Source: an uncultured Gammaproteobacteria bacterium (GTDB taxonomy: Bacteria > Patescibacteriota > Microgenomatia > JALYQM01). Taken from it: DNA of 64,000 nucleotides. The notes under the pieces are model-generated. The model worked only from the letters and a program-made list of their open reading frames with translations. It did not search any database and was not told where the DNA came from. Numbering within the stretch: position 1 is the stretch's first letter; the number at the start of each line of letters is the position of its first letter. Where the stretch lies: the NCBI GenBank assembly GCA_964403585.1, contig CAYOFQ010000001.1, positions 520,630-584,629 on the forward strand. The letters are read 5' to 3'. Of the stretch, positions 41,370 through 64,000 are shown one piece after another. The position numbers and the translations under genes are program-made.

Positions 41370-42131
41370 ATGTACGATCAGGTCTTTATAGAAAACAAGC
41401 AAACTAAAGTCGGCATTAATCCGCAGGGAGGGTATGTAACCTCCTGGAAAATTAATGACACGGATATCCTCTATCAGGGTAGCTCAATTCGTCGTACCGG
41501 CATTCCAATCCTTTTTCCCTACTATGGAAAAGCACATCAGACGCGCATGCATGGATTTGGGCGGGACTGCCAATGGGAAATCAGTACTCATGATCAGGCA
41601 TCGGTGACAATGGAACTGACACCGGACAATCTTACCGAAGAAGACCGCCGTGATTATCCATTCGAATTTTCCGCTCAAATTACTGTTAACCTTCTTAGTG
41701 ATTCCGAACTACTGTATACACTGGAAGTTACAAATAATGATTCCAAAGATCTGCCTATTTCACCGGGGATTCACCCGTATTGGTCGATTCCGCATCAGGA
41801 AAAGCCGGCCATTTCGATTAACGGAATTAATGGATTCAGCGCCGCATCAGTTGATTGGAACAATACCCCGCCTGATGATCCGTATGATTTTTCGGGTCAA
41901 GCCACCGTCAGTTTAGGAAATAAGACACTTGGTATCGAAGAGCTTTCATTACCACGAGTCGTAAAATTTTTACAGCTCTGGTCTCAAACTCCGGTTCGGG
42001 ATCCTGATTTTAATTTCCTTTGTGTCGAACCAATTTGCGGGCTGAATTACGGCATTGAAGAATCACCGTTATTAGTAAAACAAGGTGAAACGTGGCAAAT
42101 GAAGGTTAGGTTTTCTATTACTAGTGTGTAA
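41370..42131 (+). CDS. Aldose 1-epimerase family protein (mutarotase-like)
   Basis: 253 aa. Galactose-mutarotase-like beta-sandwich motifs (GIPILFPY..G..HGF.R.). Confidence 0.65.
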   Translation: MYDQVFIENKQTKVGINPQGGYVTSWKINDTDILYQGSSIRRTGIPILFPYYGKAHQTRMHGFGRDCQWEISTHDQASVTMELTPDNLTEEDRRDYPFEFSAQITVNLLSDSELLYTLEVTNNDSKDLPISPGIHPYWSIPHQEKPAISINGINGFSAASVDWNNTPPDDPYDFSGQATVSLGNKTLGIEELSLPRVVKFLQLWSQTPVRDPDFNFLCVEPICGLNYGIEESPLLVKQGETWQMKVRFSITSV

Positions 42132-45502: not shown

Positions 45503-46396
45503 TTATTTCTTTTCAGCTGCCATAAGCGGTATCAGAGCGGACTGTGCTGAGCCTTCAGGTACCAGTGTCAAATCACTCTGTCCTTCGGCGATTCGTTGAT
45601 ACTCTAAAATTTCATACATCGTCGAAAGCACATCGGGATCTTTGGCAATTTCATTCAACGTCGCTCCAACTACCTGCGGACGTACAGCTGCTGCCTTAGC
45701 AAATTCAATCGAAGCTTCCTGCTCTGCTTTACTGGCGATAATATTCACCTGGTTTACACCATCCTGTTCAATCGCCGAGGTTACCTGGCGTAACTGGTTA
45801 ACGACTTTCTCTTCAATCTGCCGGATCATCACATCGTCTCTAAAATGTACTTTACGAATATACACAGATCCTAATTTATATCCCCACTCGGAAGATTCAT
45901 CACTTACTTCCTGACGCACCACCCGGGACATCTCGTGTCGATTAATAAGCATTTCGGAAAGCGGCAAGTTGCTCAATGACTTAATTGTCGCGTTTTTAAC
46001 ATTCGCGGTCAGCGATCCCTGCGGGTCAACATTTTTAAAAATGTGCGCAATCGGATCCGAAATAAACATCTCGTACCAGACACCAATTCCCATTGGTGTT
46101 CCTTCTTCCGAGTTAACAGGAATACTGCGAATATATTGCTGATCCAAACTTAAACTGCGTGTGTAACAGCGCCCGAGCCAATTTACAAATAATGCCCTCC
46201 AGCCCAACACCGGCCAGAGCAAATGAAAGCCCGGCTCGTCCAGAGAACCGACAATATCTCCGAATAAAACATACACTTTAGCTTCGCGCTCATGGACAAT
46301 CGCATAGACACCGAGTAGGCGGCAGACAAACAAAATAAACCGCTCGGCGATAAAACAGACAAATATTGTTACAATTATTATCGGCAAATTAGTCAT
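45503..46396 (-). CDS. SPFH/band-7 domain membrane protein
   Basis: N-terminal TM helix plus SPFH core. 297 aa. Confidence 0.6.
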   Translation of the reverse strand: MTNLPIIIVTIFVCFIAERFILFVCRLLGVYAIVHEREAKVYVLFGDIVGSLDEPGFHLLWPVLGWRALFVNWLGRCYTRSLSLDQQYIRSIPVNSEEGTPMGIGVWYEMFISDPIAHIFKNVDPQGSLTANVKNATIKSLSNLPLSEMLINRHEMSRVVRQEVSDESSEWGYKLGSVYIRKVHFRDDVMIRQIEEKVVNQLRQVTSAIEQDGVNQVNIIASKAEQEASIEFAKAAAVRPQVVGATLNEIAKDPDVLSTMYEILEYQRIAEGQSDLTLVPEGSAQSALIPLMAAEKK

Positions 46397-47375
46397 GTTT
46401 GGCCTCTAAGAATATCCGTCGTGCTTTCGACAATAAGGCTAATTTTACATTACGAACATAGGCCGGCAGTGTTTTATTTCCGCTGTGTTTAATAGCCTGC
46501 AACTGAGCTGCAACCTGTTGCAGCATCTGTACTTCTGCCTGCGCTTTAAGCGTTTCAATTTGCACCGAGGTTTTCGATTGCACAATTTTCTGATCAGCCG
46601 AAGCCTGAGCCAAACTGATCTCTGATGATACATGATTATGTGCGGTATTGATCGCGGCCAGAGCGGACTCAACTTCGGCCGGTGGCTCAATGGCCGTAAT
46701 GAGCGCCGCATCCAGTGTGATACCGTAACGGGCAGCGGAAGATTTGCATTCTTCTTCCATATAGGTATTAAACTGGCCGAGATTCTTGCGCAGATCATTA
46801 ATGGATGTACCTAAGGACGCATGTAATGATGTCTGCGGACCTTCTTCTTTCTGTGGTGATTCAAAATTAGCCACGCGTTCACGCAGGATCGAGATGAAAT
46901 ATCCCATGACATGAGCGATCGGCGCAGTTACCCCAAAAAGATAACCATACAAATTGCGCTCGGAAACCGTATACCGCAGCTGTCCACGCAGTTTAATATT
47001 CAGCTGATCCTTGGTTACTGCTTCAAGTGCCGTATTATTATCATTGGCATAGGCATTTTCGGGGTCATATGCAATGTCGATCAGCTCTGTTGCAACAGAT
47101 ACTTTATGGATTTTTTCCCAGGGAAATTTAAAATACGGACCACCCGGTTTAATAACCTGAAGCTGCGGAAAACTGTAACGTGATCGTTCATCATCACGCA
47201 GAGAGTCGGCAAAATCGGGAATATCCAAAGTGGTAGCATTTTCCAGTCGCTGCGCACGGCCAAAAACAGTTTTGACGGCACGTTCGTTTTGCTGAACAAC
47301 ATAAAAGCCCTGCAGAACACAGCGGATAATGGCGTAGAAAACAATTCCTAAATAAATTCCGAAGAGGGCTTCCAT
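46389..47375 (-). CDS. SPFH/band-7 domain membrane protein (HflK/C-like partner)
   Basis: N-terminal TM helix. SPFH core followed by a coiled-coil tail. Overlaps its partner gene by 8 nt. Confidence 0.6.
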   Translation of the reverse strand: MEALFGIYLGIVFYAIIRCVLQGFYVVQQNERAVKTVFGRAQRLENATTLDIPDFADSLRDDERSRYSFPQLQVIKPGGPYFKFPWEKIHKVSVATELIDIAYDPENAYANDNNTALEAVTKDQLNIKLRGQLRYTVSERNLYGYLFGVTAPIAHVMGYFISILRERVANFESPQKEEGPQTSLHASLGTSINDLRKNLGQFNTYMEEECKSSAARYGITLDAALITAIEPPAEVESALAAINTAHNHVSSEISLAQASADQKIVQSKTSVQIETLKAQAEVQMLQQVAAQLQAIKHSGNKTLPAYVRNVKLALLSKARRIFLEAKHD

Positions 47376-47426: not shown

Positions 47427-48572
47427 ATGAATAAATATGTCTCGCTCTCCTTCATTGTCCTCATTGTTATCGCGGCGTTAGCTGGCGGATATTATTTAGG
47501 TATGCGGCAGTCCCGCCCGGAACAAAACCCAACAGTCTCTCAAAGAGATTCTGCTCCGACTTCTCCAGATTCAGCAACTGAAGAACAATCTGCTTCATCA
47601 GAGTCTGCCACGGTGACCACCGCCACTCCCAAAGCCAGATCCTCCATTAATATGAAAGCGTTGCCGCTCGGCGACAACAAAGTTACCACAACTCCCAAAG
47701 TGGGATATATCTATTCCTGCCAAAAACAGTCGGACGAAAACGGTGGTGGAGCGGGTGTTGATGGTCCATGGATTAATAAAACAACCAATACCTGGGATTA
47801 CACACAAAAAGTAACCGTGAGCGGAGAAGTAATCTGGAAAAATGCCAAGTGGAGTGTTACAGAAAATGGAGCAACCCGAACACTTACAGGAAACGGATTG
47901 CCCTCACATAAAACCGGCACCTATCCTATTCAATCATCAGACGATGCATACAAGTACGATCGCAACCCGAACTCTATTAAAGAACAAACACTGAGTCTGA
48001 ATCTCCCCACCACTCCTACCCAACTTGCTTCAGCTGAATGTGTGGGCGGAGAAGTCGGCATTATGCTCACAGGTATACCGATTTTTAACGGCTTCGATGC
48101 CGATAGCCGCGATGCTGCCGCTCATGAAATTCAGGACGACTGTGCTGGCCACCCGCAGGTAAGCGGTCAATATCACTATCACAGTCCAAGTAAATGTTTG
48201 AAAGACACTCCTGCCGCTACCGAGCACTCCGCCCTCGTTGGCTACGCCTTTGACGGGTTCGGAATATACGGAATTAAAGGACAAAACGGTGTTGAACTCT
48301 CCACACAGGATCTGGATGTCTGTCATGGTCATACGCATGAAATAGTGTGGGACGGTCAAAAGAAAACCATGTACCATTATCATCTCACCAATGATTTCCC
48401 GTATAGTGTTAGCTGTTTCCGCGGCAAAAAAGCAGTCAACGGCCCGCTTAGCGGTAAAACCGAGGGTATGCAACAGGGCGGACAGCAATCCGGTCAGAGC
48501 CAAATGTCCGGCCAGGGTCCCGGCGGGCAGCGCATGCCACCACCTCCGGGCGGTGCTCCACCTCAAAATTAG
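47427..48572 (+). CDS. Secreted YHYH-motif protein with a Gln/Gly-rich C-terminal tail
   Basis: Signal anchor. GQYHYHSP, HGHTHE and YHYHLTNDFPY motifs. C-terminal QQGGQQSGQSQ..PPPPGGAPP. Confidence 0.6.
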   Translation: MNKYVSLSFIVLIVIAALAGGYYLGMRQSRPEQNPTVSQRDSAPTSPDSATEEQSASSESATVTTATPKARSSINMKALPLGDNKVTTTPKVGYIYSCQKQSDENGGGAGVDGPWINKTTNTWDYTQKVTVSGEVIWKNAKWSVTENGATRTLTGNGLPSHKTGTYPIQSSDDAYKYDRNPNSIKEQTLSLNLPTTPTQLASAECVGGEVGIMLTGIPIFNGFDADSRDAAAHEIQDDCAGHPQVSGQYHYHSPSKCLKDTPAATEHSALVGYAFDGFGIYGIKGQNGVELSTQDLDVCHGHTHEIVWDGQKKTMYHYHLTNDFPYSVSCFRGKKAVNGPLSGKTEGMQQGGQQSGQSQMSGQGPGGQRMPPPPGGAPPQN

Positions 48573-50224: not shown

Positions 50225-50605
50225 ATGTTGAAAACGTATAAAACTTTTTATTCATTCATGTTCCGTTACAAATGGCGTTTTATCGCCTTTGTAATAACCT
50301 TAATTTGCTATTCCGTTGCCGGAAGTATTCAGCCGTATTTTTACAAACTGTTTTTAGATGCGATACCTGACAAAAATTACGATGTGCTGCTTAATATTCT
50401 GATCATGTTTATCGGGCTGCGCATTCTCCAGGTATTTCTGGATATGGCCACCTATTATTTAAGTGACGTGGTAACCTTTGCTGCCGGTCGTGATGCCCGG
50501 ATAACCATTTTTAAAAAAATCCAGGATTTGGACTTTGCTTATCATGCCAGTAAAAGTACCGGAGCATTGATCAGTGCCGTAAAAAGAGGAGATGGTGCTT
50601 TTTAA
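50225..50605 (+). pseudogene. Truncated N-terminal fragment of an ABC exporter (MsbA-like transmembrane domain)
   Basis: ABC_membrane helix 1-3 pattern (YKWRFIAFVITLI..FYKLFLDAI..RILQVFL). Stops after 127-134 aa. No ATPase domain follows. Confidence 0.5.
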
Positions 50606-50655
50606 GTACCCTTATCGAAAGCAAAAAAACAGAATTAGTCGCGCTGCTCATAGTA

Positions 50656-53190
50656 TTGGGAATTGCTGCACTCGCGCACGGCATTAACATGTTCAATTTC
50701 CCGTATTACGAAAACGATGAGGGTGTGTACATGTCCCAGGCCTGGTCGTTTAGTAATGAGGGAAAATTAGCTCCGTACACCTATTGGTATGACCACGCGC
50801 CGCTTGGTTGGATACTTATTTCTTTGTGGACAACACTCACCGGCGGATTTTACACCTTCGGATTCTCCCTCAACTCAGGGAGGGTATTTATGCTTGTGCT
50901 CCACCTTATTTCATCCGTATATCTCTATTTAATAACGAAGAAACTTACCGGCAGCAAACTATCGGGGCTCGCGGCCATCCTTTTTTTCTCCCTTACCCCG
51001 CTCGGAATATATTTCCAGCGTCGTGTTTTGCTCGACAATATCATGATCATGTGGGTGCTCATTTCACTCTATTATCTCCTGGAGTATAAAAACAGGCTGC
51101 TGTACATACTCTTTAGTGCCGTTGCGTTAGCGTTTGCCATTCTGTCAAAAGAAAACGCCATTTTTTTTATTCCGTTGTTCTTCTACATTGTTTACTCGCA
51201 AGCACACAAACGCCACCGGCTTTTTGCGGTGACGCAATGGCTGTTAATAATCGGCTCAATTGTTTCGTTATATTTTGTCTACGCCCTGGTAAAAGGGGAG
51301 TTTTTTCCGGCCTACTCAACCTTAGGCGGGAACACTGAGCACGTTAGTTTACTCGAAACACTTAAATATCAATCCAGTCGAACCGGCGGGAGTATTCTAG
51401 ATACCGAAAACAGTTTGTTCTGGCAATACATGCGGCAATGGAGCGCCGAAGATTGGGTAATAATCTACGGCGGTGTTGCAGCCATGCTGTTTAATTTTCT
51501 GCTCGCTATTCGTAATTTTAATGCCCGGGTCGTAGCACTTTTTGCCGCCTCAATGTTCTTTTTCCTGATGCGCGGAGGGATTGTTATTGAATTCTATGTC
51601 ATTCCGCTGATCCCGTTATTGGCAGTTAACCTGGCGTATGCATTGACCGCTGTAGCCAATGTCTTTGCAAATATTGCACAGCGCGAACATTTGCACAATT
51701 CATTGCTTGGAGCCGCCACACTAGTCTTCAGTGTAGTTATGCTTTCTCAAGCCGGAACTGTTCGGGATAATCGCAATTTATATACATCCAATCAGGCACA
51801 ACCGCAGCGTGATGCCGTCGAGTGGATCAAGGCAAACCGTTCGCCCGACGAATTTATTGTCATCGATAACTATGGCTATTTGGATTTACGGAAAGATCCT
51901 AATAAGCAATTCAATAATGCCGACTGGTATTGGAAAATCGATACCGATAAAGACATTCTGCAAAAAAAGCTCGGTAACGATCCGAACAACATTGATTATT
52001 TAGCCGTGACGCCGCAAATGGAATTTGATATCAAACAAAGTGGGCTGAGTATTGTCGGTAAAGCACTGGGGGATTCCCGCCCTGTCACGCAGTTTTACCG
52101 CGACGGCTGGGGCGTAACTATTTGGGGAGTACATACACCGCAACGTAACTTAATGGCTGCGTGGGAAAGTTACAAACGCGATTTTATCAAAGACGGGCAG
52201 GTGATTGATCCCAGCGGAAAAATTACTACTTCGGAAGGTCAGGCATATGCTTTATTACGTGCAGTGTGGATGAAAGACCAGCCGGCTTTCTTTCAAATTC
52301 ATAAATGGACCAAGGATCATCTCTATCGGGATAACAATTTACTGCAATGGCGTTACAGCAAAGAAAATCCTGCCGCAAACGATCCCGGCTCAGCTACCGA
52401 TGCCGATCAGGATTACGCGCTTGCCCTCTTATTTGGATCGCGGGTCTGGAATGATTCTGGATTCCAAAAAGAAGCGGTTTCCATGATTCGGGCTATCTGG
52501 CAGTACGAAACCGCCGCACTTGGCAGCAAGGTCTACAGTCTTGCCGGAGAGTGGGGCGATAAACCTGATGAGCTGGTTGTAAATCCTTCCTATCTTTCAC
52601 CGTCTCATTACCGCATTTTTGCCCAGGTGGATCCCTCAAATGACTGGAAAAAGGTTGTCGATTCATCCTATGAGGTCTTAGACGGATGTACACACTCGCC
52701 GCTGGACGCCGGCCGCGGCGTTTTGCCGGCCGAATGGTGCGCTATTAACAAAGCAAGCGGAGTCTATAGTAAACCGTCTCAATCAGACTTTTCTACAGAA
52801 TACGGATACAATGCTTTCAGAGTACCGTGGCGGGTAATGCTCGATTATCAATGGAATAGGGATCCGCGTGCTCGCGATTATCTTCGCTCATTGGTATTCC
52901 TGTCCGATCAGTGGAACACGCATAAAAAGTTGTCCGCAGTATATACACATGACGGCCAGGTGCAAGAAGAATACGAATCAGCCGCTGCCTATGCCGGGAA
53001 TCTCGGTTATTTCATGCTTACAAGCCCCACCACTGCTAAAACAATCTATACTACCAAAATTGCTGCGAAGTTCTATGAGAACGAAAAAGAATCCTATTGG
53101 GAAGACCCGGACAATTATTACACCCAAAACATTACCTGGTTTGGTACCGCGTTATACTCCAATCAGCTGCCGAATTTATGGACCAAGTAA
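50656..53190 (+). CDS. Fusion protein: N-terminal GT-C fold membrane glycosyltransferase (PMT/ArnT-like) and C-terminal glycoside hydrolase family 8 domain
   Basis: Roughly 9-11 TM helices. The first-loop DE motif (YENDEGVYMSQAW) is typical of GT39/GT83. GH8 motifs TSEGQAYAL (catalytic Glu) and ATDADQDYALALLFG (GH8 signature) are present. Confidence 0.7.
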   Translation: MGIAALAHGINMFNFPYYENDEGVYMSQAWSFSNEGKLAPYTYWYDHAPLGWILISLWTTLTGGFYTFGFSLNSGRVFMLVLHLISSVYLYLITKKLTGSKLSGLAAILFFSLTPLGIYFQRRVLLDNIMIMWVLISLYYLLEYKNRLLYILFSAVALAFAILSKENAIFFIPLFFYIVYSQAHKRHRLFAVTQWLLIIGSIVSLYFVYALVKGEFFPAYSTLGGNTEHVSLLETLKYQSSRTGGSILDTENSLFWQYMRQWSAEDWVIIYGGVAAMLFNFLLAIRNFNARVVALFAASMFFFLMRGGIVIEFYVIPLIPLLAVNLAYALTAVANVFANIAQREHLHNSLLGAATLVFSVVMLSQAGTVRDNRNLYTSNQAQPQRDAVEWIKANRSPDEFIVIDNYGYLDLRKDPNKQFNNADWYWKIDTDKDILQKKLGNDPNNIDYLAVTPQMEFDIKQSGLSIVGKALGDSRPVTQFYRDGWGVTIWGVHTPQRNLMAAWESYKRDFIKDGQVIDPSGKITTSEGQAYALLRAVWMKDQPAFFQIHKWTKDHLYRDNNLLQWRYSKENPAANDPGSATDADQDYALALLFGSRVWNDSGFQKEAVSMIRAIWQYETAALGSKVYSLAGEWGDKPDELVVNPSYLSPSHYRIFAQVDPSNDWKKVVDSSYEVLDGCTHSPLDAGRGVLPAEWCAINKASGVYSKPSQSDFSTEYGYNAFRVPWRVMLDYQWNRDPRARDYLRSLVFLSDQWNTHKKLSAVYTHDGQVQEEYESAAAYAGNLGYFMLTSPTTAKTIYTTKIAAKFYENEKESYWEDPDNYYTQNITWFGTALYSNQLPNLWTK

Positions 53191-53264: not shown

Positions 53265-54578
53265 ATGTCTTATACAACCTCAATAGGATCATACACATCA
53301 CTTTATGCTCGAATATTGTCGTACCGCAAATTCCTCATTAGGTCGTTCTTCACCTTACTGTTCTTCCTGGTTTTATACGGAATCTTAATTTATAAACTGG
53401 TATTTTTCCTGAATACTCCATGGGACTGGTTCGCCGGAGTATATAGTCTTCTTACCGGTGCTTTTTTGTTATCACGTTTTGCCATAGTATTATTCTATTC
53501 GGATAATCATACCGGAACATTCAAAAGCAAAAGATACCCAACAATTTCGGTGGTAATTGCCTGTAAAAATGAAGAGGATTCAATATACAAAACAATTGAG
53601 ACGTGTATGCAATCCGAATATCCCAAACCTATTGAATGTATCGCGGTTGACGATGGCTCAACAGATAATACCTATGCCGAAATGGAACGCGCCGAAAAAG
53701 ACTTCAATGGAGTACGTTTGATCAAGTTCGATAAGAACAGAGGAAAACGCGAGGGGATGGCCGAAGGAGTTTTGATTGCCAGGAATGAAGTAATCGTATT
53801 TGTTGATTCTGACAGCTTTGTTAAAAAGGATGCCATCAAAATTATTGCTGAGCATTTCATCTATGATGATAAAGTCGGCGCAGTATCGGGTAATAGTAAA
53901 GTCGAAAATATTGATACAAACGCCCTTACCAAAATGCAGTCAGCCCGGTACGGGGTTTCATTTGATATTTTCAAAGCCTGTGAAGGTGTATTTGGTACAG
54001 TTACCTGCTGCCCGGGGTGTTTCTCTGCGTACCGGCGCAAAGCAATTATGGAAGTTATTAATGCCTGGCGATACCAAATGTTTTTGGGTACCCGGAGCAC
54101 CTTTGGTGATGACCGCAGTTTAACAAATCACGTTCTGCGTAAATGGAAAGTTGAGTACTGTATAACGGCTGAGGCGACGACCATTGTCCCCGACAAATAT
54201 AAAAAGTTTTTTAAACAGCAATTCCGCTGGAAGAAATCCTGGATCCGCGAAGGTACCAATGCTGCCAAGTTCATTTGGCGAAAACATCCGATCGCAGCGC
54301 TGTCATTTTATACTAATCTGCTCATTCCCATTTTTGGTCCATTTATTGTCGGATACGTACTCTACTATAGTTTTTACGTTCAAAATGCATTGCCTTTCGT
54401 CTATTTTGGTGGCTTGACCGCAATGAGTGTCCTGTTCGGTGCGTTTTACTATATTCGCTCAGAAAACAAATACTGGTGGTATGTGATTCTCTTCACCTGG
54501 CTTTATTCAATAGTGTTAATTTGGCAGATGCCGTACGCGCTCCTGAAACTGCGCGACACTAAATGGGGGACACGGTAA
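53265..54578 (+). CDS. Processive family-2 glycosyltransferase (NodC / chitin synthase / HasA / PgaC-like polysaccharide synthase)
   Basis: TM-flanked GT2 with DDGSTD, DSDSF, GCFSAYRR and QQFRWKKSW (the QxxRW motif). Confidence 0.85.
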   Translation: MSYTTSIGSYTSLYARILSYRKFLIRSFFTLLFFLVLYGILIYKLVFFLNTPWDWFAGVYSLLTGAFLLSRFAIVLFYSDNHTGTFKSKRYPTISVVIACKNEEDSIYKTIETCMQSEYPKPIECIAVDDGSTDNTYAEMERAEKDFNGVRLIKFDKNRGKREGMAEGVLIARNEVIVFVDSDSFVKKDAIKIIAEHFIYDDKVGAVSGNSKVENIDTNALTKMQSARYGVSFDIFKACEGVFGTVTCCPGCFSAYRRKAIMEVINAWRYQMFLGTRSTFGDDRSLTNHVLRKWKVEYCITAEATTIVPDKYKKFFKQQFRWKKSWIREGTNAAKFIWRKHPIAALSFYTNLLIPIFGPFIVGYVLYYSFYVQNALPFVYFGGLTAMSVLFGAFYYIRSENKYWWYVILFTWLYSIVLIWQMPYALLKLRDTKWGTR

Positions 54579-56108
54579 ATGCCACGACCGAAGCCCCATA
54601 AACGAGCGCTGCTGCTTGCAATGATTAGTGCCGGAATCGGGGTAGCGTTGTATATAACATACCCTTTTGCCAAAGAGATCTTACGAAATTACTCAGTGCC
54701 GTATTATTCGTACAGCAAAAAAAATATCACTTCACCCAAACCGGCCGCGCGGGAACCGGCTGTTGCGGTGCCAATTCTCATGTATCACGGCGTCGTACCC
54801 GATGCGGATCCGGAAAATACGCAGCAGGCACTCTTTGTTGAGCAAATGGAATTACTGAAAAAAAACGGCTATGAAACTATTACCATCAGCCAATATGATC
54901 AGTTCAGACAAAAGCAATTCACATTGCCGCCTAAACCGATCATCATAACCTTCGATGACGGTCGCAAAGACAGTTTCTATCCCACTGATGATGTATTTAA
55001 GAAACTCGGATTTAAGGCAACTATATTTCTTGCCACCATCAAACCTGATGAAAAAGATAAGTTCTATCTGAGCTGGGAAGATCTGAAGAAAATGAGAAAC
55101 AGCGGGCGGTGGGAGATCGAAGCACACGGACGACGCTCGCATGAGAAGGTGATTGCCAATAAACAAGGGAATACCGGAAGATACCTTACTTCCCGTATGT
55201 ATAACCAGGAGACTGGGCAACTCGAAAGTTTAGAGGATTTTAAAAACCGGGTCGAAGAGGATTACAAAAACGGTATTGAAGATATTAAGAAAAATCTCGG
55301 TCTTGATCCAAAGTATTACGCTATTCCACTTAACGATTACGGACAAAATGCCGGCGAAGCACAACCAGAAGCGGTCACCTTGAATAGAGAACTGACGCAG
55401 AAATATTTCCGGATGGCTTTCATCGAGGAATTCGTTTACACCGACAAACTTTCCAACGAGTACTATCATCTGCAAAATAATATTTATAACTATGCTGATG
55501 ATGACCCATATACGTTACGCCGCGTTGAAGTACGCAATATGCCGGCCCAAAAACTGCTCGATTTCCTGGAGGCCGAATCCCCCCGTACCCGAGCCATCAC
55601 CATTAACACCGAGCATCCTGATGACTTTAAGAAAAATACCATCCTGCGCTACGGTGACGGCTTATTTGATAAGGACGGCTTCCATCTGAAGTCAAATGCC
55701 AAAACTGCCAGTGCCAAAGCATTTTTTGGCAATAAGCGCTGGAAGGACTACACCATCGAAGCAACAATGCAGCGGATTAAAGGGCGGAACATCACCCTTC
55801 TCGGACACATGCCGGATAACTCCAACGATGTCGGATTCGGCATGACCGACAATGGCCTGTTCCTGCGGGAGACAAACAATGGTTCTGAAACCGAGCTGAG
55901 TCCGTCAATTATTATTAATCCGGTTGCCGGTCGTGCGTACAATTTCAAAATGGTCTTCAAGAGTAATACCGTTATCTGTTATTTGGATGGGATTCAGGTA
56001 TTTCCGCAAACTACCATTCATCAAACCGCCGGTTTCGCCGGATTTAAAGTCTGGGATGATAAAGAAGCGGAGGGGTTACTCAAATCGATCAAAATATACT
56101 ACAATTAA
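54579..56108 (+). CDS. Membrane-anchored polysaccharide deacetylase (CE4/NodB homology) with a C-terminal lectin-like beta-sandwich domain
   Basis: 1-nt stop/start overlap with the GT2 gene. CE4 motif 1 IITFDDGRKDS. His motifs. 509 aa. Confidence 0.8.
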   Translation: MPRPKPHKRALLLAMISAGIGVALYITYPFAKEILRNYSVPYYSYSKKNITSPKPAAREPAVAVPILMYHGVVPDADPENTQQALFVEQMELLKKNGYETITISQYDQFRQKQFTLPPKPIIITFDDGRKDSFYPTDDVFKKLGFKATIFLATIKPDEKDKFYLSWEDLKKMRNSGRWEIEAHGRRSHEKVIANKQGNTGRYLTSRMYNQETGQLESLEDFKNRVEEDYKNGIEDIKKNLGLDPKYYAIPLNDYGQNAGEAQPEAVTLNRELTQKYFRMAFIEEFVYTDKLSNEYYHLQNNIYNYADDDPYTLRRVEVRNMPAQKLLDFLEAESPRTRAITINTEHPDDFKKNTILRYGDGLFDKDGFHLKSNAKTASAKAFFGNKRWKDYTIEATMQRIKGRNITLLGHMPDNSNDVGFGMTDNGLFLRETNNGSETELSPSIIINPVAGRAYNFKMVFKSNTVICYLDGIQVFPQTTIHQTAGFAGFKVWDDKEAEGLLKSIKIYYN

Positions 56109-56112
56109 TTAA

Positions 56113-57054
56113 ATGAAACGAATTGTAGTTATTTTTAGCGTTATTTTTGTACTGCTAAGTGCGTTTTGTGTGTATTTATATTACTATCAATCCACCAGCA
56201 GTCAGGCACTACTCATGAAGCCTTTTATCTCTGTAGATATCCAAAATACGCTTCGTTCGCCCGACAATTCCTTTGCCGATGAGCCAAGCCCGAGCCCTGA
56301 CAGCCCGCTGCCCAGTGATTTTATTGACGATTTTACTGCTAAGCGAACAATTGAGGAAGCTCCGAATATCGGTGCCAGCTCTGATGCCAACTGGTGGGTT
56401 AACTCCGGCGGCCAGTTTGTCATCGAAAAGGGAATTGGTAAAACCATGCAGGGCGACGCACCCGATTCTTCCCGCTGGTACGAAGCGTATAAGCGTACAA
56501 CTCCCGTGGATACAGATGACGGCCGTCATCCGCAAAATATTTTCAGATTGGTACTGCGGTCGGATTGGCGGGATTATACCCAGCAGGTATACGCACAAGT
56601 TCTCAAAGATAACATCAGTAATAGTCAGTCACGCGACGACTCCAACGGACTGTTCTTGTTCAACCGGTACGTAAACGGCGATAATGTCTATTACACAGGG
56701 TTACGTGTTGACGGGGCAGTCGTGATCAAGAAAAAATACAAAGGTGCGTACTATACCATGGGGTATAAAAAGATTCTGAATTTACCAAAGTACCATCGTA
56801 CCGACAATCCGAACTTACTTCCAAAAGATACCTGGATTGGCATTAAAAGTACCGTAACCAGTCTCGAAGACAATAAGGTCAAAATAGATTTCTATACCGA
56901 TATTGGCGCAACCGGAACCTGGAAATTAGGGATTTCGGCAACCGACGACAATAAAGCCTATGGCGGCCCAAGTTTAGCTAAAGCAGGCCATGCCGGTATC
57001 CGTACTGACTTTATGGATGTACAATTTAAGGAGTATAAGATTTCGGGAATATAA
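56113..57054 (+). CDS. Secreted protein with a concanavalin/LamG-like (DUF1080-type) domain
   Basis: Signal anchor. PS-rich linker. C-terminal AGHAGIRTDFMDVQFKEYKI resembles the DUF1080 terminal strand. Confidence 0.45.
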   Translation: MKRIVVIFSVIFVLLSAFCVYLYYYQSTSSQALLMKPFISVDIQNTLRSPDNSFADEPSPSPDSPLPSDFIDDFTAKRTIEEAPNIGASSDANWWVNSGGQFVIEKGIGKTMQGDAPDSSRWYEAYKRTTPVDTDDGRHPQNIFRLVLRSDWRDYTQQVYAQVLKDNISNSQSRDDSNGLFLFNRYVNGDNVYYTGLRVDGAVVIKKKYKGAYYTMGYKKILNLPKYHRTDNPNLLPKDTWIGIKSTVTSLEDNKVKIDFYTDIGATGTWKLGISATDDNKAYGGPSLAKAGHAGIRTDFMDVQFKEYKISGI

Positions 57055-57677
57055 TGAATAAAAATATTGTGGTGATTGCCTCGGTTCTCATCTTTGCCCT
57101 GGGATACAACTTACTGGTTGGATCAACTAAGCTGGAATCATTTGAGTGCGCCAATCAGTCGGCTTATCTGCTTTGTGATAAAAAAGTAGGCTTCGATACG
57201 TATACGTTATTTTTCTCTCTTCCACTGATCGCAGGAGTGATTGGTTTACTCTCACGGTATAATCCACCTAAGGTAATCTTAACTACCCTAATCACCTTAA
57301 TAATTTGGATTCTTACTATTGAGCTCATCTCTCATCTCCTGGTTCTTCCGGTGCTGTACACACATTTTATGGAAGGACGTCAGAGCCTTTCTTTGTCGGG
57401 ATATTTCGGATTTCGTGAGGCAGCAGGAGTGATGCTCATCGCCTTAATAATATCGCTGCTGTGTAGTTACATTGGGAACATTATCCATTTATTCGTGACT
57501 ACAAAACCCGGTCAGTGGCGCCAAACGATCCCGCGAAAAAACCTTATCTGGGCACCCGTCTACATTTTCGGTGTCATATTCTTTTCGTATCTCATTCTAC
57601 TGCTCACCATGACATCACAGCCGCGTTCGCAAATACAACAGTATCCGGTAGAACGTTTGCCTACCGAACTGAGATAA
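57054..57677 (+). CDS. Polytopic membrane protein, function unknown
   Basis: 207 aa with 5-6 hydrophobic helices. The start overlaps the upstream stop. Confidence 0.5.
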   Translation: MNKNIVVIASVLIFALGYNLLVGSTKLESFECANQSAYLLCDKKVGFDTYTLFFSLPLIAGVIGLLSRYNPPKVILTTLITLIIWILTIELISHLLVLPVLYTHFMEGRQSLSLSGYFGFREAAGVMLIALIISLLCSYIGNIIHLFVTTKPGQWRQTIPRKNLIWAPVYIFGVIFFSYLILLLTMTSQPRSQIQQYPVERLPTELR

Positions 57678-57678
57678 T

Positions 57679-58374
57679 ATGTTTACGTACAAAACCAAAA
57701 CCTACGGCAAAGGTCAAAAAGTTGTCTATCTGTTATCCGGCTGGGCGTTTGACCGCCGGTTTTTCGCTCCTGTCGCGTATGTGCTGGTGCTCGCCGGATA
57801 TACCTGTACTGTCTATTCGTACGACGCCTCAGTGCTTTCTCCGGATATTCACAAAACCATAGCCAGATTCACTGAAGTCAAGGAAAGTATTCTTGCTAAA
57901 ATAGCAGCTGACACGCAGGCAGGGAAAACACCGTATGCAGTTTTTGGCACAAGTCTCGGCGCCATTATCGGTTTGATGGTCGTCAACGAAAGCCCGGGTA
58001 TCAAAAAAGTTATTCTCAATCTAACCGGGGCTGATATTGCCGAGACCGTCTGGGGGTGGGATATTATTAAGCCTTGGTTTAAAAAGGCGCTACGGATCGC
58101 CGGGATAACCCTAGAACGGTTAAAGAAAGATTGGGCACCTATTAGCCCAATCAACAACATCGACCATTTACAGGGCAAGGATATTTTATTGTATCTCTCT
58201 GAAAAAGATGAAGTAATTCCGTACACCCAAGGTGAAAAATTTAAACAAAGTCTCGAAGCAAGAGGATACCAACTCCAATTTATACTCAATAGAAAACGAA
58301 TCCATATTCTTGCAGCGGCCTGGAACTTAATTAAGTTTCCCGTGTATATAAAATTCCTTAAGAAGACTTCTTAA
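57679..58374 (+). CDS. Alpha/beta hydrolase fold esterase
   Basis: Nucleophile elbow GTSLGA (G-x-S-x-G). 231 aa. Confidence 0.6.
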   Translation: MFTYKTKTYGKGQKVVYLLSGWAFDRRFFAPVAYVLVLAGYTCTVYSYDASVLSPDIHKTIARFTEVKESILAKIAADTQAGKTPYAVFGTSLGAIIGLMVVNESPGIKKVILNLTGADIAETVWGWDIIKPWFKKALRIAGITLERLKKDWAPISPINNIDHLQGKDILLYLSEKDEVIPYTQGEKFKQSLEARGYQLQFILNRKRIHILAAAWNLIKFPVYIKFLKKTS

Positions 58375-58819: not shown

Positions 58820-60442
58820 TTATACTATCTCTTCTTTCTTCTCACGAATAAACGAAAACCATTCTTCGGCGATCGTGATCAGCGATTTGAGCGGGGCTTC
58901 GAGAATAAAATCAAAAATGAAAATAAAAATATTAATTTTTGAGAAACCGGCCGACAGCCACCGGCCAACACGCAGGAACGGCAGGAAAAAGAAATCGATA
59001 ATCGCCGTAAAAAAGGATTCTTTATCCCCGGTCACCATCAGCTCGGTAGCTGTTTGTCGAATACGGAAGGCAAAGAAAGATACCAGACAGGTGAACAGGA
59101 AGAAGAGTCCCTTGCTGACAATATTAAAATGCAAATTAGACAAAAGAATCCAGATTAAGCCAAAAGAAATGATAAATGTTGCTGCATAGACATAGACAAA
59201 CACTTCCGACCGGCGTTTCGGGAGCGGGATCTTAAGTTTAATTGCATTTCTACCATCCGGGTCATCAACCAGCGCATTGACCCGGTCCATAATTTTATCG
59301 GTATTCTTTTTATCCGGCGTCCTGATCGACAGAGCGACAATAAACATCAGTAACGGCGGAAAAATAACATTAATCAACAGTGGAATATATAAGACTTCAC
59401 CGTGAATGAGATTATCAGCGGGAAGCTCTAAAATAAAAGCCAAAGTCATTTTTGTGATGAACAGGTAAATAATACTTCGGGTCGCCGCGCGTTGAATTTT
59501 CTGTCGCACCGTCTTATACCGGGTTGTGCACTCCTCACGAATGGTTTCCTCGCGTTTAGCCGGATCGGCCAGTAAGTCGTACCGGTTCTTTTTATTTTTA
59601 TCGACCACTGACTTAATAATTAAAAACGGCGCCGTTTGCCTCCGTATCACCGGCAGTAAGCGTTCACCAAGCGGATGATGTAAATGGTATTCAATAGCCT
59701 CCACTGCCTGAATAAATTGTGTTGCCACCTGTTCGGTTAAATCAGGCTGATTTTTAGTCCAGTCGGGATAATAACTGGTCAACAAGTGGTACCGTAGCAC
59801 CGCACTGTCCGATTTAAGCAAACAGCGGTGGATCGTAAGGAACACCTGTAAGTTCTTAGTTGCTTCGTCAATTCCGGGAGCACTTTCGGTGTGATCAAGG
59901 GATAAATACATCAGCTGAACCAGCGCATCGGTAGTGTAATGAGGGACCAGTAATTGTTCAATTTCCGCAGACATAACGCCAATAATCCAGTCACGTAAAT
60001 CAGGAAGTTTTTTCGTCTGTTTATAGGTGTTCCGCTCAAGTAAGACTTTGTACCGGCGGATAATTTGGGCCACTTCATCGATACGTTCCTGAGGCAAAAT
60101 ATTATTATCAATGTAATGAGCCCAGGTAATTTCTTTTATTAACCCTTCGGCGATACTGCGCTCGCCATTTTTGGATGAAGTGATTCGTCTGAGCAGGATA
60201 CGGCCAATCGCTTTCCGGCGTAAAACTGTCTCATCCTGATAGTCGATAACCTGCCGAACACGTTCAAAAACAACAGCTAGGGCTGAAGCCGCTCGGGAGA
60301 CTTGAATATTCCCGGTATTCTGTGAAGCCGCCGATGCCTGGGATTCCAAATCATATGACCGGAGAAACTCTTTTACCGAAGGAGACTTTATCTCTGGTGG
60401 TGGAGAAGGAGGTGTAAATTGAGATTGTGAACCTGTATCCAT
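58820..60442 (-). CDS. Large hypothetical protein with a C-terminal polytopic membrane domain
   Basis: 540 aa. N-terminal soluble region, then 5 or more TM helices. Confidence 0.5.
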   Translation of the reverse strand: MDTGSQSQFTPPSPPPEIKSPSVKEFLRSYDLESQASAASQNTGNIQVSRAASALAVVFERVRQVIDYQDETVLRRKAIGRILLRRITSSKNGERSIAEGLIKEITWAHYIDNNILPQERIDEVAQIIRRYKVLLERNTYKQTKKLPDLRDWIIGVMSAEIEQLLVPHYTTDALVQLMYLSLDHTESAPGIDEATKNLQVFLTIHRCLLKSDSAVLRYHLLTSYYPDWTKNQPDLTEQVATQFIQAVEAIEYHLHHPLGERLLPVIRRQTAPFLIIKSVVDKNKKNRYDLLADPAKREETIREECTTRYKTVRQKIQRAATRSIIYLFITKMTLAFILELPADNLIHGEVLYIPLLINVIFPPLLMFIVALSIRTPDKKNTDKIMDRVNALVDDPDGRNAIKLKIPLPKRRSEVFVYVYAATFIISFGLIWILLSNLHFNIVSKGLFFLFTCLVSFFAFRIRQTATELMVTGDKESFFTAIIDFFFLPFLRVGRWLSAGFSKINIFIFIFDFILEAPLKSLITIAEEWFSFIREKKEEIV

Positions 60443-61211: not shown

Positions 61212-61275
61212 CTACTATTTTTAATCATGTTGCTAACGCTTGTCAAGAATGTTCTCGTCCATGTACGATAATAGT

Positions 61276-62709
61276 ATGCAACCTTCTGTCGCTATACATG
61301 GACATTTTTATCAGCCACCACGTACAGATCCGTTTACCGGAGAGGATATGGTTGATCCGTTTGTCCTCGATCAGACCGGTGGCAAATATAAAAGCTGGAA
61401 TGAAATCATTAGTGCCGAGTGCTACAAACCAAATGCCGACCTTGGAAATTTTTCACTGATCTCATTTGATTTGTATCGATCACTCGCGGAATGGCTCGAA
61501 AAAAACGACCCCGCCGTATACTGGAAAATTATTCAGAATGACCAGATCGCGTTTCAAAAAGACGGCTTTGGCAGCGCTTTTTGCGGCAGCTGGGACCACG
61601 CCATTCTGCCGCTCCTTTCCAACGAAGATAAAGAAATAGAAATTTATTGGGGATACCACGATTATCTTAAAAGATTCGGTCATCCGCCGGTCGGGTTCTG
61701 GTTGGCTGAGACCGCCGTCTCATTTGATGTGATGGATATCCTTGCCAAAAACGGATTACGGCTCGTAATCTTAGCACAGTGGCAAACACATAATCCGGTG
61801 GATACCACTAAAATTTACTGGGTGAATTTACGGGAGGGGCGAAGAATCTGTGTGGCTTTTTATGATAAGCAGCTTTCAGACAATCTCTCTTTTAATTCAA
61901 TGGCCATGGCCAATGCCGATCAGTTCGCGCGCGATTACATCGCCTCCCGCAATTTACACGACACCCAAATCATGATGGGCGCCACCGACGGTGAGCGCTA
62001 CGGTCATCATTTGAAAGGCGGGGAAAAATTTTTGAACCGGTTACTCACTAAAGGTCTTGCTGATCTGAACATGCAGCCGTCAACGTTAATGAAAGCATTT
62101 GCTCAGGTACAACCAAAGGATGAAGCTTTTATTAAAGACAACACCTCCTGGAGCTGTCTCTGTGGCGACCTGAAGCGATGGAAACAGGATTGTGAATGTT
62201 GTGTTGATTATGACCGAAATAATATGCGCGTGAACGGCCAGTGGAAGGCCACACTGTTTAATGCCATCAATACCATGTCTCAAAATCTTGTTGCGGTTAC
62301 CGATAACATTTTAAGTAAATTACTTATCAATCCAACGGAGGCTAAAAAAGAGTTCATTCATGTGTATTTGCATACGGTTACTGAAAGTGAATTCCTGGCT
62401 AAACATCAGCGTAAACCGCTTGATGCCCACGAGATTCATTTGGTAATGAAGGCCTGTCAACTGCAGATGTATCGCCTGGCAGCCTACACCAGCTGCGGAT
62501 GGTTCTTCTCGGACATTGACCGCCCAGAGCCACGAATAGTTATCGGCAATATGAAAAAGGCACTCTCCATGCTGGCTGATCTTGGCCACGTCGAGCATAT
62601 GATGAATCTGGAAAAATCATTTGTAGCTGAGCTGAGTAACGCCAAAAGCAATTTTACTGGGAAAAACGGAAAAGATCTGTATCTTGAATACCGGTCTTTA
62701 CTAGGTTAA
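61276..62709 (+). CDS. Glycoside hydrolase family 57 protein (alpha-amylase / 4-alpha-glucanotransferase type)
   Basis: HGHFYQPPR N-terminal motif. WLAE (nucleophile Glu) and DGE regions. ATG at 61276 preferred over the track start. Confidence 0.8.
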   Translation: MQPSVAIHGHFYQPPRTDPFTGEDMVDPFVLDQTGGKYKSWNEIISAECYKPNADLGNFSLISFDLYRSLAEWLEKNDPAVYWKIIQNDQIAFQKDGFGSAFCGSWDHAILPLLSNEDKEIEIYWGYHDYLKRFGHPPVGFWLAETAVSFDVMDILAKNGLRLVILAQWQTHNPVDTTKIYWVNLREGRRICVAFYDKQLSDNLSFNSMAMANADQFARDYIASRNLHDTQIMMGATDGERYGHHLKGGEKFLNRLLTKGLADLNMQPSTLMKAFAQVQPKDEAFIKDNTSWSCLCGDLKRWKQDCECCVDYDRNNMRVNGQWKATLFNAINTMSQNLVAVTDNILSKLLINPTEAKKEFIHVYLHTVTESEFLAKHQRKPLDAHEIHLVMKACQLQMYRLAAYTSCGWFFSDIDRPEPRIVIGNMKKALSMLADLGHVEHMMNLEKSFVAELSNAKSNFTGKNGKDLYLEYRSLLG

Positions 62710-62720
62710 TACAATCCTAT

Positions 62721-64000
62721 ATGAACATTGGATCATTCATCTTCGTTTTGCATAGTCATGTACCGTATGTACGGAAAAGCGGAAAGTGGCCCCACGGCGA
62801 AGAAATGCTCTACGAAATCATTGCCGAAACGTATGTCCCGTTATTAAATGCCTTTGATGCACTCTATAAAGACGGTATTCCACCGCGAGTCAGTTTGGGT
62901 TTAACACCGATATTACTTGAACAGCTCAACGATCCGTACATGCAACGCGAGTTTGTAAAATATATTAAAATCCGTTTGAAATCTGCCCGGGAAGAATATG
63001 AAACCTTCAAGAAAACTACTCCTGAAGCGTTGAACGTGTGTGAGTTTTACATTAACTGGTATTCACAAATACTCAATGATTATGAACATAAATACGACCA
63101 CGATTTAATCAATGCCTTCAAATTTTTTCAGGATAAAGGACACCTGGATATTCTTACCAGTGCTGCGACACACGGGTACCTGCCATTATTATCACGCGAC
63201 AGTACTATCTGGGGACAATTACGTACAGGAATTAAACAGTATAAACGATACTTCGGACGTGAACCATCAGGAATTTGGTTGCCTGAATGCGGTTATCGTC
63301 CACTATCACCGGAGAACCGCGCAGGTATTGAAACGTTTTTGGACGAAATGAATCTAAAGTACTTTTTCACTGATTCGCACGTTATCGAGTCGGCTGTACA
63401 CGCCAATGGTGAAGAGAAAATTGTACCGGCTTATTCACCTCAGCCAAGTTGGATGATGTATACTAACGCGTTTGTTTTGACCACCAGTACACCAAAAAGA
63501 AATACGAAAAAGAAGTCACCGCCGGTACCGGCAAAACCTGCCGAAATTACCACTTTTCATCCGTATTATGTCGAGGATTCGAATGTGTTCGTTTTTGGAC
63601 GAGATAATGTAACCGGAATGCAGGTCTGGTCGGCTCAGTGGGGCTATCCCGGAGATTTTGCGTACAGGGAATTCCATAAAAAGTCTAAACAGACAGGGAT
63701 TCAATACTGGAAAATATCCAATAAACGCGAGGGGATGAAATTTAAAGAATATTATGTTCCACAGGAAGCCTTTCCGCGAGCTGAGGAACACGCTACACAT
63801 TTTGCCGAATTGGTGGAAGGTCATCTGCTCAATTACTGTACCCAGAATAATAAAAAAGGTGTCGTAGTTTCTTCATATGATACCGAACTCTTTGGCCATT
63901 GGTGGTTCGAAGGAGTGCACTGGATAGAATCCGTTATCCGCAATTTTGCTAAAAAGCAGACGGTAGAATTAACATCGGCCAGAGAATATGTTGAAGCGCA
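62721..64000 (+). CDS. GH57-type 1,4-alpha-glucan branching enzyme (3' end outside the window)
   Basis: ATG at 62721, then FVLHSHVPYV and GIWLPECGYRP motifs. The frame remains open to the window end. Confidence 0.8.
   Translation, partial: MNIGSFIFVLHSHVPYVRKSGKWPHGEEMLYEIIAETYVPLLNAFDALYKDGIPPRVSLGLTPILLEQLNDPYMQREFVKYIKIRLKSAREEYETFKKTTPEALNVCEFYINWYSQILNDYEHKYDHDLINAFKFFQDKGHLDILTSAATHGYLPLLSRDSTIWGQLRTGIKQYKRYFGREPSGIWLPECGYRPLSPENRAGIETFLDEMNLKYFFTDSHVIESAVHANGEEKIVPAYSPQPSWMMYTNAFVLTTSTPKRNTKKKSPPVPAKPAEITTFHPYYVEDSNVFVFGRDNVTGMQVWSAQWGYPGDFAYREFHKKSKQTGIQYWKISNKREGMKFKEYYVPQEAFPRAEEHATHFAELVEGHLLNYCTQNNKKGVVVSSYDTELFGHWWFEGVHWIESVIRNFAKKQTVELTSAREYVEA

Follow-up and report, generated by a model that had tools for sequence, protein, structure and literature searches.

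Which polymer is made by a membrane-embedded synthase whose gene runs directly into that of a polysaccharide deacetylase? This question is raised by positions 53,265 to 57,054 of a 64 kb stretch of contig CAYOFQ010000001.1 (assembly GCA_964403585.1, Patescibacteriota), hereafter called the window, where three genes follow each other on the same strand. Synthase-dependent exopolysaccharides such as cellulose, poly-β-1,6-N-acetylglucosamine (PNAG), alginate, Pel and hyaluronan play a central part in biofilms and in host interaction and, to our knowledge, only a handful of synthase-dependent systems are known. Our analysis indicates that the three genes on balance probably encode such a system, widespread among bacteria, whose product would be a partly deacetylated N-acetylhexosamine (HexNAc) polymer, with a β-1,4 linkage favoured. 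The three genes are as follows:

53265..54578, + strand: GT2 (glycosyltransferase family 2) synthase, 437 aa (open reading frame (ORF) list, Pfam, NCBIfam and PDB matches, tree)
54579..56108, + strand: CE4 (carbohydrate esterase family 4) de-N-acetylase, predicted, membrane-anchored, 509 aa (Pfam, NCBIfam and PDB matches, AlphaFold, Foldseek)
56113..57054, + strand: ORF4, ConA-fold protein, 313 aa (AlphaFold, Foldseek, synteny, domain fusions)

A six-frame ORF list places these genes exactly where a first, sequence-only reading of this DNA had put them. That reading described an overlap of GT2 and CE4 in a TAAATG; the GT2 stop codon TAA (54576-54578) and the CE4 start codon ATG (54579) in fact abut without overlapping, and 4 nt separate CE4 from ORF4. 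We consider GT2, CE4 and ORF4 to be one translationally coupled module. Transcription units are deduced from gene spacing only, because promoter and terminator scans gave no more hits than in shuffled sequence.

The GT2 motifs quoted earlier, DDGSTD (residue 129), DSD (181), GCFSAYRR (251) and QQFRW (318), are all present, as are GDDR (281) and a terminal WGTR (434), and hydropathy analysis confirmed the flanking hydrophobic segments, at 31-49, 59-77, 343-361 and 376-394, on both sides of the catalytic domain. GT2 is predicted to begin with two transmembrane helices, followed by a GT-A domain in the cytosol and, towards the C-terminus, a second membrane region. The residues that characterize membrane-embedded, processive-type GT2 enzymes (D130, D181-x-D183, D282-D283 and Q318-Q-F-R-W322) are in place, and the D, DxD, GDDR and QQxRW catalytic motifs are invariant across 26 homologs (alignment A1). 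Class I hyaluronan synthases (HAS), such as HasA, CvHAS (PDB 7sp6-7spa) and Xenopus HAS1 (8smm), have the same layout, and GT2 is close in size to the HasA of the Bacillus anthracis pXO1 plasmid, with which it shares GDDR, QQxRW-xKS-x-x-RE and WGTR. The best PDB matches of GT2 are likewise the class I synthases CvHAS and XlHAS1 (E about 1e-31, residues 156-437), in an alignment that spans the membrane region up to the last residue of GT2. As references, we used hasA of B. anthracis pXO1, two nodC genes, pgaC, icaA and bcsA, all recovered out of annotated plasmids or E. coli K-12. GT2 is 31% identical to HasA, 30% to CvHAS, 26% to NodC, 21-24% to PgaC and 16% to BcsA. The motifs separate these enzymes further: catalytic GDDR, the QQxRW-xKS-x-x-RE extension after QxxRW and a C-terminal WGTR occur in the GT2 family, HasA and CvHAS, whereas the two rhizobial NodC sequences have GEDR and WLSR, PgaC/IcaA have TED-I and WxSP, and neither shares the QxxRW extension.

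In Pfam, GT2 matches Glycos_transf_2 (E 1e-28) and Chitin_synth_2 (E 4.5e-21, 75.5 bits against a gathering threshold of 27); the latter match is not proof of chitin synthesis, because HAS and further GT2 enzymes score with this model too (PMC5122149). The top NCBIfam model is NodC (TIGR04242, 161.7 bits, E 2.5e-47), far under its equivalog cut-off of 550, and PgaC/IcaA (TIGR03937, 146.5 bits, E 1e-42) also stays under its cut-off of 422.3; the CelA model gives 16 bits only, and no equivalog cut-off is reached by GT2. A neighbour-joining tree (500 bootstraps, few references, among them only two HAS sequences) recovered the GT2 family as monophyletic (bootstrap 97-100%) and split this family, HAS and NodC from PgaC/IcaA/BcsA at 90-91% bootstrap. 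The family nests in neither HAS nor NodC, and its grouping with HAS has a bootstrap of 11-12%. Therefore, GT2 resembles class I HAS in motifs (GDDR, QQxRW, WGTR) and in its HasA-like layout, but its position in the tree lies outside the HAS clade: judged by its sequence, it is a branch of its own within the NodC/HAS superclade, distinct from PgaC, NodC and HasA. Profile and structure matches, motifs and tree together place GT2 with the membrane-embedded HexNAc synthases NodC, HAS and chitin synthases (CHS), not with dolichol- or polyprenol-phosphate transferases. A transferase of that second kind was rejected as a candidate, since the GtrB, DPM1 and ArnC-type matches (20-45 bits) cover the N-terminal GT-A half only, while those to NodC, PgaC and HAS reach QxxRW and the membrane region. 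The pgaCB or nodCB logic put forward in the sequence-only reading is therefore an analogy only, as GT2 is far under the NodC and PgaC cut-offs, forms a separate clade and has the HAS-type GDDR and WGTR.

CE4 carries the TFDDGRKDS motif at residue 124 and matches Pfam Polysacc_deac_1 (E 2.5e-13, 50.5 bits against a cut-off of 23.1). Its sequence resembles the N-terminal domains of PgaB, BpsB and IcaB (NCBIfam, PDB), although the PgaB model TIGR03938 gives 103.3 bits against a cut-off of 321.9. Alignment to BpsB and AaPgaB identified H70, D126-D127, H183 and H188, whose counterparts in PgaB serve as acid and base in catalysis and as ligands of the metal, among them a His-x4-His pair. H183 is kept in at least 90% of the sequences and the other four residues are invariant (alignment A3), and the full set of PgaB-type catalytic and metal residues is retained in CE4. 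The AlphaFold model, obtained with 40 homologs (pLDDT 89.9), consists of a transmembrane helix (~6-35), the catalytic domain and a C-terminal β-sandwich (~340-509). In this model the catalytic domain superposes on PgaB/BpsB (TM-score ~0.8, Foldseek E 6e-17), and the best match of the β-sandwich is CBM66 (Foldseek E 4e-11, target-normalised TM-score 0.80-0.83, rmsd 1.9 Å). The earlier description of this domain as lectin-like holds at the level of the fold only. CE4 lacks the GH153 domain of PgaB and has the CBM66-like β-sandwich in its place.

The third gene, ORF4, has no Pfam or NCBIfam match, and none in Pfam even at E=10. It had been described as a secreted LamG/DUF1080-like protein. In its AlphaFold model (pLDDT 88.7), a disordered linker (30-56) connects an N-terminal anchor (4-22) to a ConA-like β-sandwich. 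The Foldseek matches of ORF4 have modest TM-scores; the best is CBM66, and the others include lectins and the folds of GH16, PL7 and PL14. The ConA-like fold is thus retained, but neither Laminin_G_3 nor DUF1080 matches in Pfam even at E=10, and the 22-residue N-terminal hydrophobic stretch resembles a membrane anchor and not a cleaved signal peptide. All 955 ORF4 homologs are annotated as hypothetical. In a full HMMER search the domain formed 677 clusters at 50% identity, with 364 at E<=1e-30, and it is found alone, in tandem or within larger proteins. Nine long proteins of the last kind were scanned: the domain is fused to GH6 (three proteins), GH5, CE4, heparinase II/III-like plus CE4 (two) and BACON, and one has no Pfam match. 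Because of this fusion pattern, with partners mostly from β-1,4-glycanase families, the ORF4 domain behaves like a carbohydrate-binding module, and the protein probably binds carbohydrate. Two other origins were tried: hhalign detected no relationship of ORF4 to the C-terminal domain of CE4 (probability 1.7%) or to a PL7 lyase encoded in the window (0.3%). A role of ORF4 as the lyase or hydrolase of the module is weakened by the fusions of its domain to heparinase-like/CE4, GH6 and GH5 partners.

Conservation of the module was followed with a one-genome-per-species scan, which yielded at least 560 loci; 80 were retained and, with one locus from a Paenibacillus plasmid, 81 were compared. GT2 homologs at 50-88% identity come mainly from Patescibacteria metagenomes, under the JGI label 'hyaluronan synthase'. 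Module loci span Patescibacteria, Methylococcales (Crenothrix, Methylocaldum), Acidobacteriota (Holophaga foetida), Nitrospirota, Verrucomicrobiota and their relatives, Actinobacteria (Rhodococcus, Frankia, Acidimicrobiia) and the Paenibacillus plasmid. A same-strand CE4 catalytic domain starts at most 700 nt after the GT2 stop in 70 of the 81 loci, in at least eight phyla, and the pairing of GT2 and CE4 noticed in the window is thus conserved across phyla. Three further loci, all from Patescibacteria (GT2 identity 49-59%), have a fusion of heparinase II/III-like and CE4 domains directly downstream of GT2 (L005, 9226-12447; L007, 9216-12500; L014, 1445-4696). Altogether, CE4 comes after GT2 in about 75 of the 81 loci. 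Among 55 loci whose flanking sequence is sufficient, 29 encode ORF4, which, instead of the add-on for which it had been taken, is the conserved third component of the module. A GH18 gene occurs in 14 loci, and a locus with one of ORF4, GH18 or a heparinase-like domain hardly ever has another of the three, which had prompted the idea of ORF4 as a lyase or hydrolase. Immediately upstream of the synthase gene and on the same strand, 26 of the 81 loci encode an NDP-sugar dehydrogenase. These enzymes are nearest to UDP-ManNAc dehydrogenase or to the UDP-GlcNAc C6-dehydrogenase TviB (at most 469 bits against a cut-off of 592 in NCBIfam), and UDP-glucose dehydrogenase models score well below the UDP-HexNAc-type models.

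In the diderm loci, two more proteins are encoded: a second one with CE4, and a giant one in which tetratricopeptide repeats (TPR) are combined with CE4. In Methylocaldum and Holophaga (L021, 11816-15874; L038, 10870-15057), the CE4 domain lies inside proteins of ~1350-1400 aa with long N-terminal TPR arrays; the second CE4 protein precedes them, and a GH18 gene follows in Holophaga. Such an arrangement looks like a PgaA/PgaB-type component for export and modification in fused form. In two other proteins (P0387, P0388), the heparinase II/III-like and CE4 fusion additionally bears a C-terminal ORF4 domain. Finally, a profile-derived scan of IMG/VR found no viral relatives, and a hand-made QQxRWxKSWxRE DNA pattern retrieved HAS-like genes of chlorovirus type (28% identity) as well as a single 'viral' contig with the whole module. 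On this 66.7 kb contig (IMGVR_UViG_3300019888_000005, L090, 5912-11625), a UDP-HexNAc-dehydrogenase-like gene, a GT2 gene (41% identical), a CE4 gene and two tandem ORF4-like genes are found; either the contig is bacterial and was filed wrongly, or the module has a mobile or viral carrier here.

From these features we infer the substrate, the linkage, the topology and the roles of ORF4 and of the CBM66-like domain as follows. GT2 would take UDP-GlcNAc at the cytosolic face and polymerise a β-linked HexNAc chain, most probably β-1,4, which it would extrude through a channel that its transmembrane helices themselves provide, like class I HAS and chitin synthases; the likeness to class I HAS leads us to expect that GT2 translocates its own product. 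In both CE4 and ORF4, the N-terminal anchor helix is preceded by basic residues, and the domains of the two proteins are therefore predicted to face outward; with these domains outside, the polymer would have to pass the membrane, as the products of HAS and CHS do. Outside, the anchored CE4 would strip some N-acetyl groups through its PgaB-type metal site while its CBM66-like C-terminal domain holds the chain, and the anchored ORF4 β-sandwich would bind the polymer at the cell surface, for retention or presentation. The product would be a partly de-N-acetylated, chitin- or chitosan-like surface polymer.

As for the linkage, members of this clade that transfer GlcNAc (NodC, CHS and HAS) form β-1,4 bonds. 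This clade chemistry, the GH18 associations, the fusions of the ORF4 domain to β-1,4-glycanases and the CE4 partner are the reasons for which we favour a β-1,4-linked, partly deacetylated HexNAc polymer; the GH8 domain encoded next door to GT2 was also counted towards this linkage. With GT2 grouping away from dolichol-phosphate transferases and the CE4 motifs intact, a partly deacetylated β-linked HexNAc polymer stays the best reading. What the sequence-only reading had observed is thus confirmed and its interpretation is supported in part, for GT2 and CE4, and not for a pga or nod identity nor for the role given to GH8.

Several points weigh against this reading. A literature search found no paper describing this bacterial module and no characterised member of the family. 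The window contains no UDP-HexNAc dehydrogenase, GH18 or heparinase-like gene of the kind seen in relatives, and a PL7 lyase gene lies ~10 kb from the module, which would suit an acidic product. The GDDR and WGTR motifs of GT2 are of the hyaluronan synthase type and not of the NodC type, so that a heteropolymer is still conceivable, and the tree that separates the family from HAS had few references. CE4 is nearest to deacetylases of PNAG, a β-1,6 polymer. Finally, the outward topology of CE4 and ORF4 is predicted from models, and the carbohydrate binding proposed for ORF4 from models and domain fusions.

The strongest competitor, which we nevertheless hold to be unlikely, is an acidic glycosaminoglycan-like heteropolymer. 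GT2 would then be a dual-specificity, HAS-type enzyme that alternates GlcNAc with glucuronic acid (GlcA), GlcNAcA or ManNAcA, and CE4 would N-deacetylate the chain, for which heparan N-deacetylation offers an analogy. HasA and CvHAS are the closest characterised sequences to GT2, GDDR, QQxRW-KKS-W-x-RE and WGTR are common to B. anthracis HasA and CvHAS and not to NodC or PgaC, and the JGI pipelines name the homologs accordingly. The dehydrogenase directly upstream in 26 loci and the heparinase II/III-like domain, fused to CE4 in close Patescibacteria relatives and to CE4 and the ORF4 domain elsewhere, also fit an acidic product. Against it stand the ~30% identity of GT2 to class I HAS, its separate clade and the low bootstrap of the family with HAS. 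GT2 has no hasB or hasC partner and, unlike in the HAS systems, its partners are CE4 and a ConA-fold protein; no dehydrogenase gene for a hasB-type supply of precursor lies within the window, and in the nearest relatives (L002-L004, L006, L008-L013 and L015) none is adjacent to the module. Where dehydrogenases do occur, they resemble the UDP-HexNAc and not the UDP-Glc type, which makes true hyaluronan unlikely, and the GH18, GH8, GH6 and GH5 associations suit neutral β-1,4 chains. In CvHAS, K177 and R341 contact the GlcA carboxylate (PMC12987647). Equivalents of both residues are conserved in every synthase compared, and because they do not discriminate, the sequence cannot decide whether GT2 uses a uronic acid. 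The label 'hyaluronan synthase' given to these genes by annotation pipelines is probably wrong. The heparinase-like/CE4 fusions suggest a uronate-containing polymer where they occur, the polymer of the dehydrogenase-bearing relatives probably also contains a HexNAc-uronic acid and, because of these two associations, many relatives would make an acidic version of the polymer.

A PNAG system in which a divergent synthase has taken the place of PgaC/IcaA is still less probable. Like pgaABCD/icaADBC, the module joins a synthase to an extracytoplasmic CE4 enzyme for partial de-N-acetylation. This CE4 is closest to PgaB, BpsB and IcaB in both sequence and fold, the PgaC_IcaA model matches GT2 at E 1e-42, and the giant TPR-plus-CE4 protein of diderm relatives recalls PgaA/PgaB. 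However, the synthase itself does not fit: GT2 has 147 bits against the PgaC cut-off of 422, stands apart from PgaC/IcaA at 90% bootstrap and lacks TED-I and WxSP. In addition, no PgaD- or IcaD-like partner is found, CE4 has a CBM66-like domain where PgaB has GH153, and the hydrolases associated with the module are of β-1,4 type (GH18, GH8 and the GH6/GH5 fusions) and not GH20 or GH153.

The GH8 domain belongs to the gene directly upstream of the module, on the same strand and 74 nt from GT2, and the sequence-only reading had seen in it a bcsZ-like trimming enzyme. This gene follows the remnant of another one:

50225..50602, + strand: ABC transporter remnant, MsbA/glucan-exporter-like, residues 1-126 of 576 (Pfam ABC_membrane, tblastn)
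50656..53190, + strand: GT-C (PMT_2)/GH8 fusion, 844 aa, 5'-truncated (Pfam, NCBIfam and PDB matches)

The GT-C part of the fusion is a PMT_2 domain with ~9 transmembrane segments, followed by an extracytoplasmic GH8 domain (~500-840) with TSEGQ at 525 and TDADQD at 581. This domain scores 147.6 bits with Pfam GH8, above the cut-off, and 122.9 bits with the BcsZ model NF008305, under the cut-off of 299. Its best PDB match is CelA of Clostridium thermocellum (105 bits), and the chitosanase ChoK gives 47 bits; by sequence, the domain is thus closest to cellulases. In L002, the closest relative of the window, the order is an ABC exporter, a 421-aa gene, a BcsA-like second GT2, the GT-C/GH8 fusion, the HAS-like GT2, CE4 and ORF4, with the fusion 30 nt behind the second GT2. 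Compared with L002, ~4.7 kb are missing from the window, namely the rest of the ABC exporter, the 421-aa gene, the second GT2 and the ATG of the fusion (tblastn). At the junction (50602), residue 126 of the ABC exporter runs, with a change of reading frame, into the fusion at about its residue 5, and the deletion scar covers 50225-50689 of the window against 584-5400 of L002. A Logan contig (L001) has the same order as the window: the second GT2 is lacking, and a short ABC fragment is called immediately before the fusion.

Could the GH8 enzyme nevertheless be a functional partner, so that the synthase, the deacetylase and a chitosanase-type trimming enzyme form a lineage unit? The same strand and short gap, the occurrence of chitosanases such as ChoK within family GH8, the fusions of the ORF4 domain to other β-1,4-glycanases elsewhere and the retention of the arrangement in L002 would agree with this. 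We consider it improbable, as the fusion lies beside the module in only two of the 81 loci (L001 and L002), follows a different, BcsA-like GT2 in L002, is closest to cellulases (CelA, BcsZ model) and, in the window, lacks its original start and some of its first transmembrane helix because of the deletion. The likeness to cellulose bcs operons with BcsZ is that a GH8 endoglucanase-type domain adjoins a membrane synthase gene; here, however, GH8 is fused to GT-C, fails the BcsZ cut-off, pairs with the other GT2 in L002 and is not conserved with the module. The role of a bcsZ-like trimming enzyme is thus not supported, and the gene is better read as a stranded remnant of a neighbouring second synthase module, with cross-use possible. 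A metagenome scan for the context of the GT-C/GH8 fusion found nothing.

NodC products stay in the cytosol until NodIJ exports them, which differs from the membrane translocation proposed for the module, where the substrate of an anchored and outward-facing CE4 must be exported by the synthase. A NodC-like signal synthase with a NodB-like deacetylase, making chito-oligosaccharides rather than a polymer, is most improbable: the GT2 and CE4 pairing recalls nodBC, GT2 lies in the same superclade as NodC, a HexNAc substrate is expected, NodC is the best NCBIfam model (positions 38-394 of 395) and Frankia has non-Nod 'chitin synthases' and deacetylases (Persson 2015, PMC4447401), but GT2 has 162 bits against the 550-bit cut-off of the NodC equivalog model and GDDR/WGTR instead of GEDR/WLSR, no nodA or nodIJ genes are present, CE4 is an anchored, outward-facing PgaB-type protein of 509 aa with a CBM-like domain and not a small cytosolic NodB, and diderm relatives have TPR export-type proteins.

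The Frankia 'chitin synthases' and deacetylases, described as non-NodC and non-NodB (Persson 2015, PMC4447401), probably belong to the GT2/CE4 family. The bacterial chitin synthases reported by Goncalves 2016 (PMC5122149) are of a different, eukaryote-derived class. In chloroviruses and fungi, a UDP-GlcNAc 6-dehydrogenase (UNGD), a CHS-like enzyme (CV class) and a polysaccharide deacetylase are encoded in a cluster whose product is unknown (Chen 2014, PMC4059230; Goncalves 2016, PMC5122149). The same three-gene logic is seen in the 26 dehydrogenase-bearing bacterial relatives, and this cluster is the nearest parallel, by gene content only; it is however eukaryotic and viral, and the window has no dehydrogenase. 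Neither the IMG/VR profile scan nor the DNA-pattern search recovered a CV-class CHS.

Downstream of the module, two further genes are coupled translationally to ORF4:

57054..57677, + strand: ORF5, 207 aa, five predicted transmembrane segments, no known family
57679..58374, + strand: ORF6, alpha/beta-hydrolase, 231 aa (Pfam Hydrolase_4, Peptidase_S9, Abhydrolase_6)

The ORF5 start overlaps the ORF4 stop by 1 nt, and 1 nt separates ORF5 from ORF6. ORF6 matches an RcgR-like NCBIfam model below its cut-off and may be an esterase. A tblastn search with the L002 proteins against the window found no counterpart of either gene in this closest relative, and the pair is a lineage-specific addition. Further downstream, 58820-60442 (- strand) encodes a membrane protein (540 aa, no known family) that shares 87% identity with its counterpart in L002, a higher conservation than that of the exopolysaccharide genes, and it is followed by a GH57/DUF3536 gene (61240-62709) and a GH57 branching-enzyme gene (62721-63992+), both of alpha-glucan metabolism. 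Upstream, the product of the PL7 gene (42121-43569, - strand; 482 aa) ends in an alginate/polyguluronate-lyase domain (Pfam 146 bits; PDB 1uai, E 1e-63), which may bear on uronate polymers made or eaten by the organism. A YHYH-domain protein with a Gly/Gln/Pro low-complexity tail (47427-48572), two adjacent Band_7 (SPFH) genes (45503-47375, - strand) and a VWA-domain protein (3698-5941) are also encoded upstream, and no link of these genes to the locus was found. Three proteins have no Pfam match at E<=1e-5: 589 aa (12253-14022, - strand), 823 aa (14114-16585, + strand) and 774 aa (16643-18967, + strand).

Although its parts are familiar, the module joins in one system a synthase of the HAS/NodC clade, a PgaB-type deacetylase and a conserved domain without family assignment. 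It is directly testable, since its carriers include the cultured Holophaga foetida, Methylocaldum, Rhodococcus and Paenibacillus. More tentatively, and with clearly less confidence than we place in the system itself, the module could represent a distinct, phylum-spanning class of synthase-dependent exopolysaccharide system, with chitin or chitosan in bacteria, an 'acidic chitin' in relatives and ORF4 as a new domain family; it may be the prokaryotic counterpart of the UNGD/CHS-like/deacetylase cluster and, in Patescibacteria, might serve host attachment. If the product is chitin- or chitosan-like, the synthesis of polymeric chitosan would be established in bacteria, and, if this holds true, the module would open a way into the largely unexplored chemistry of the patescibacterial cell surface.

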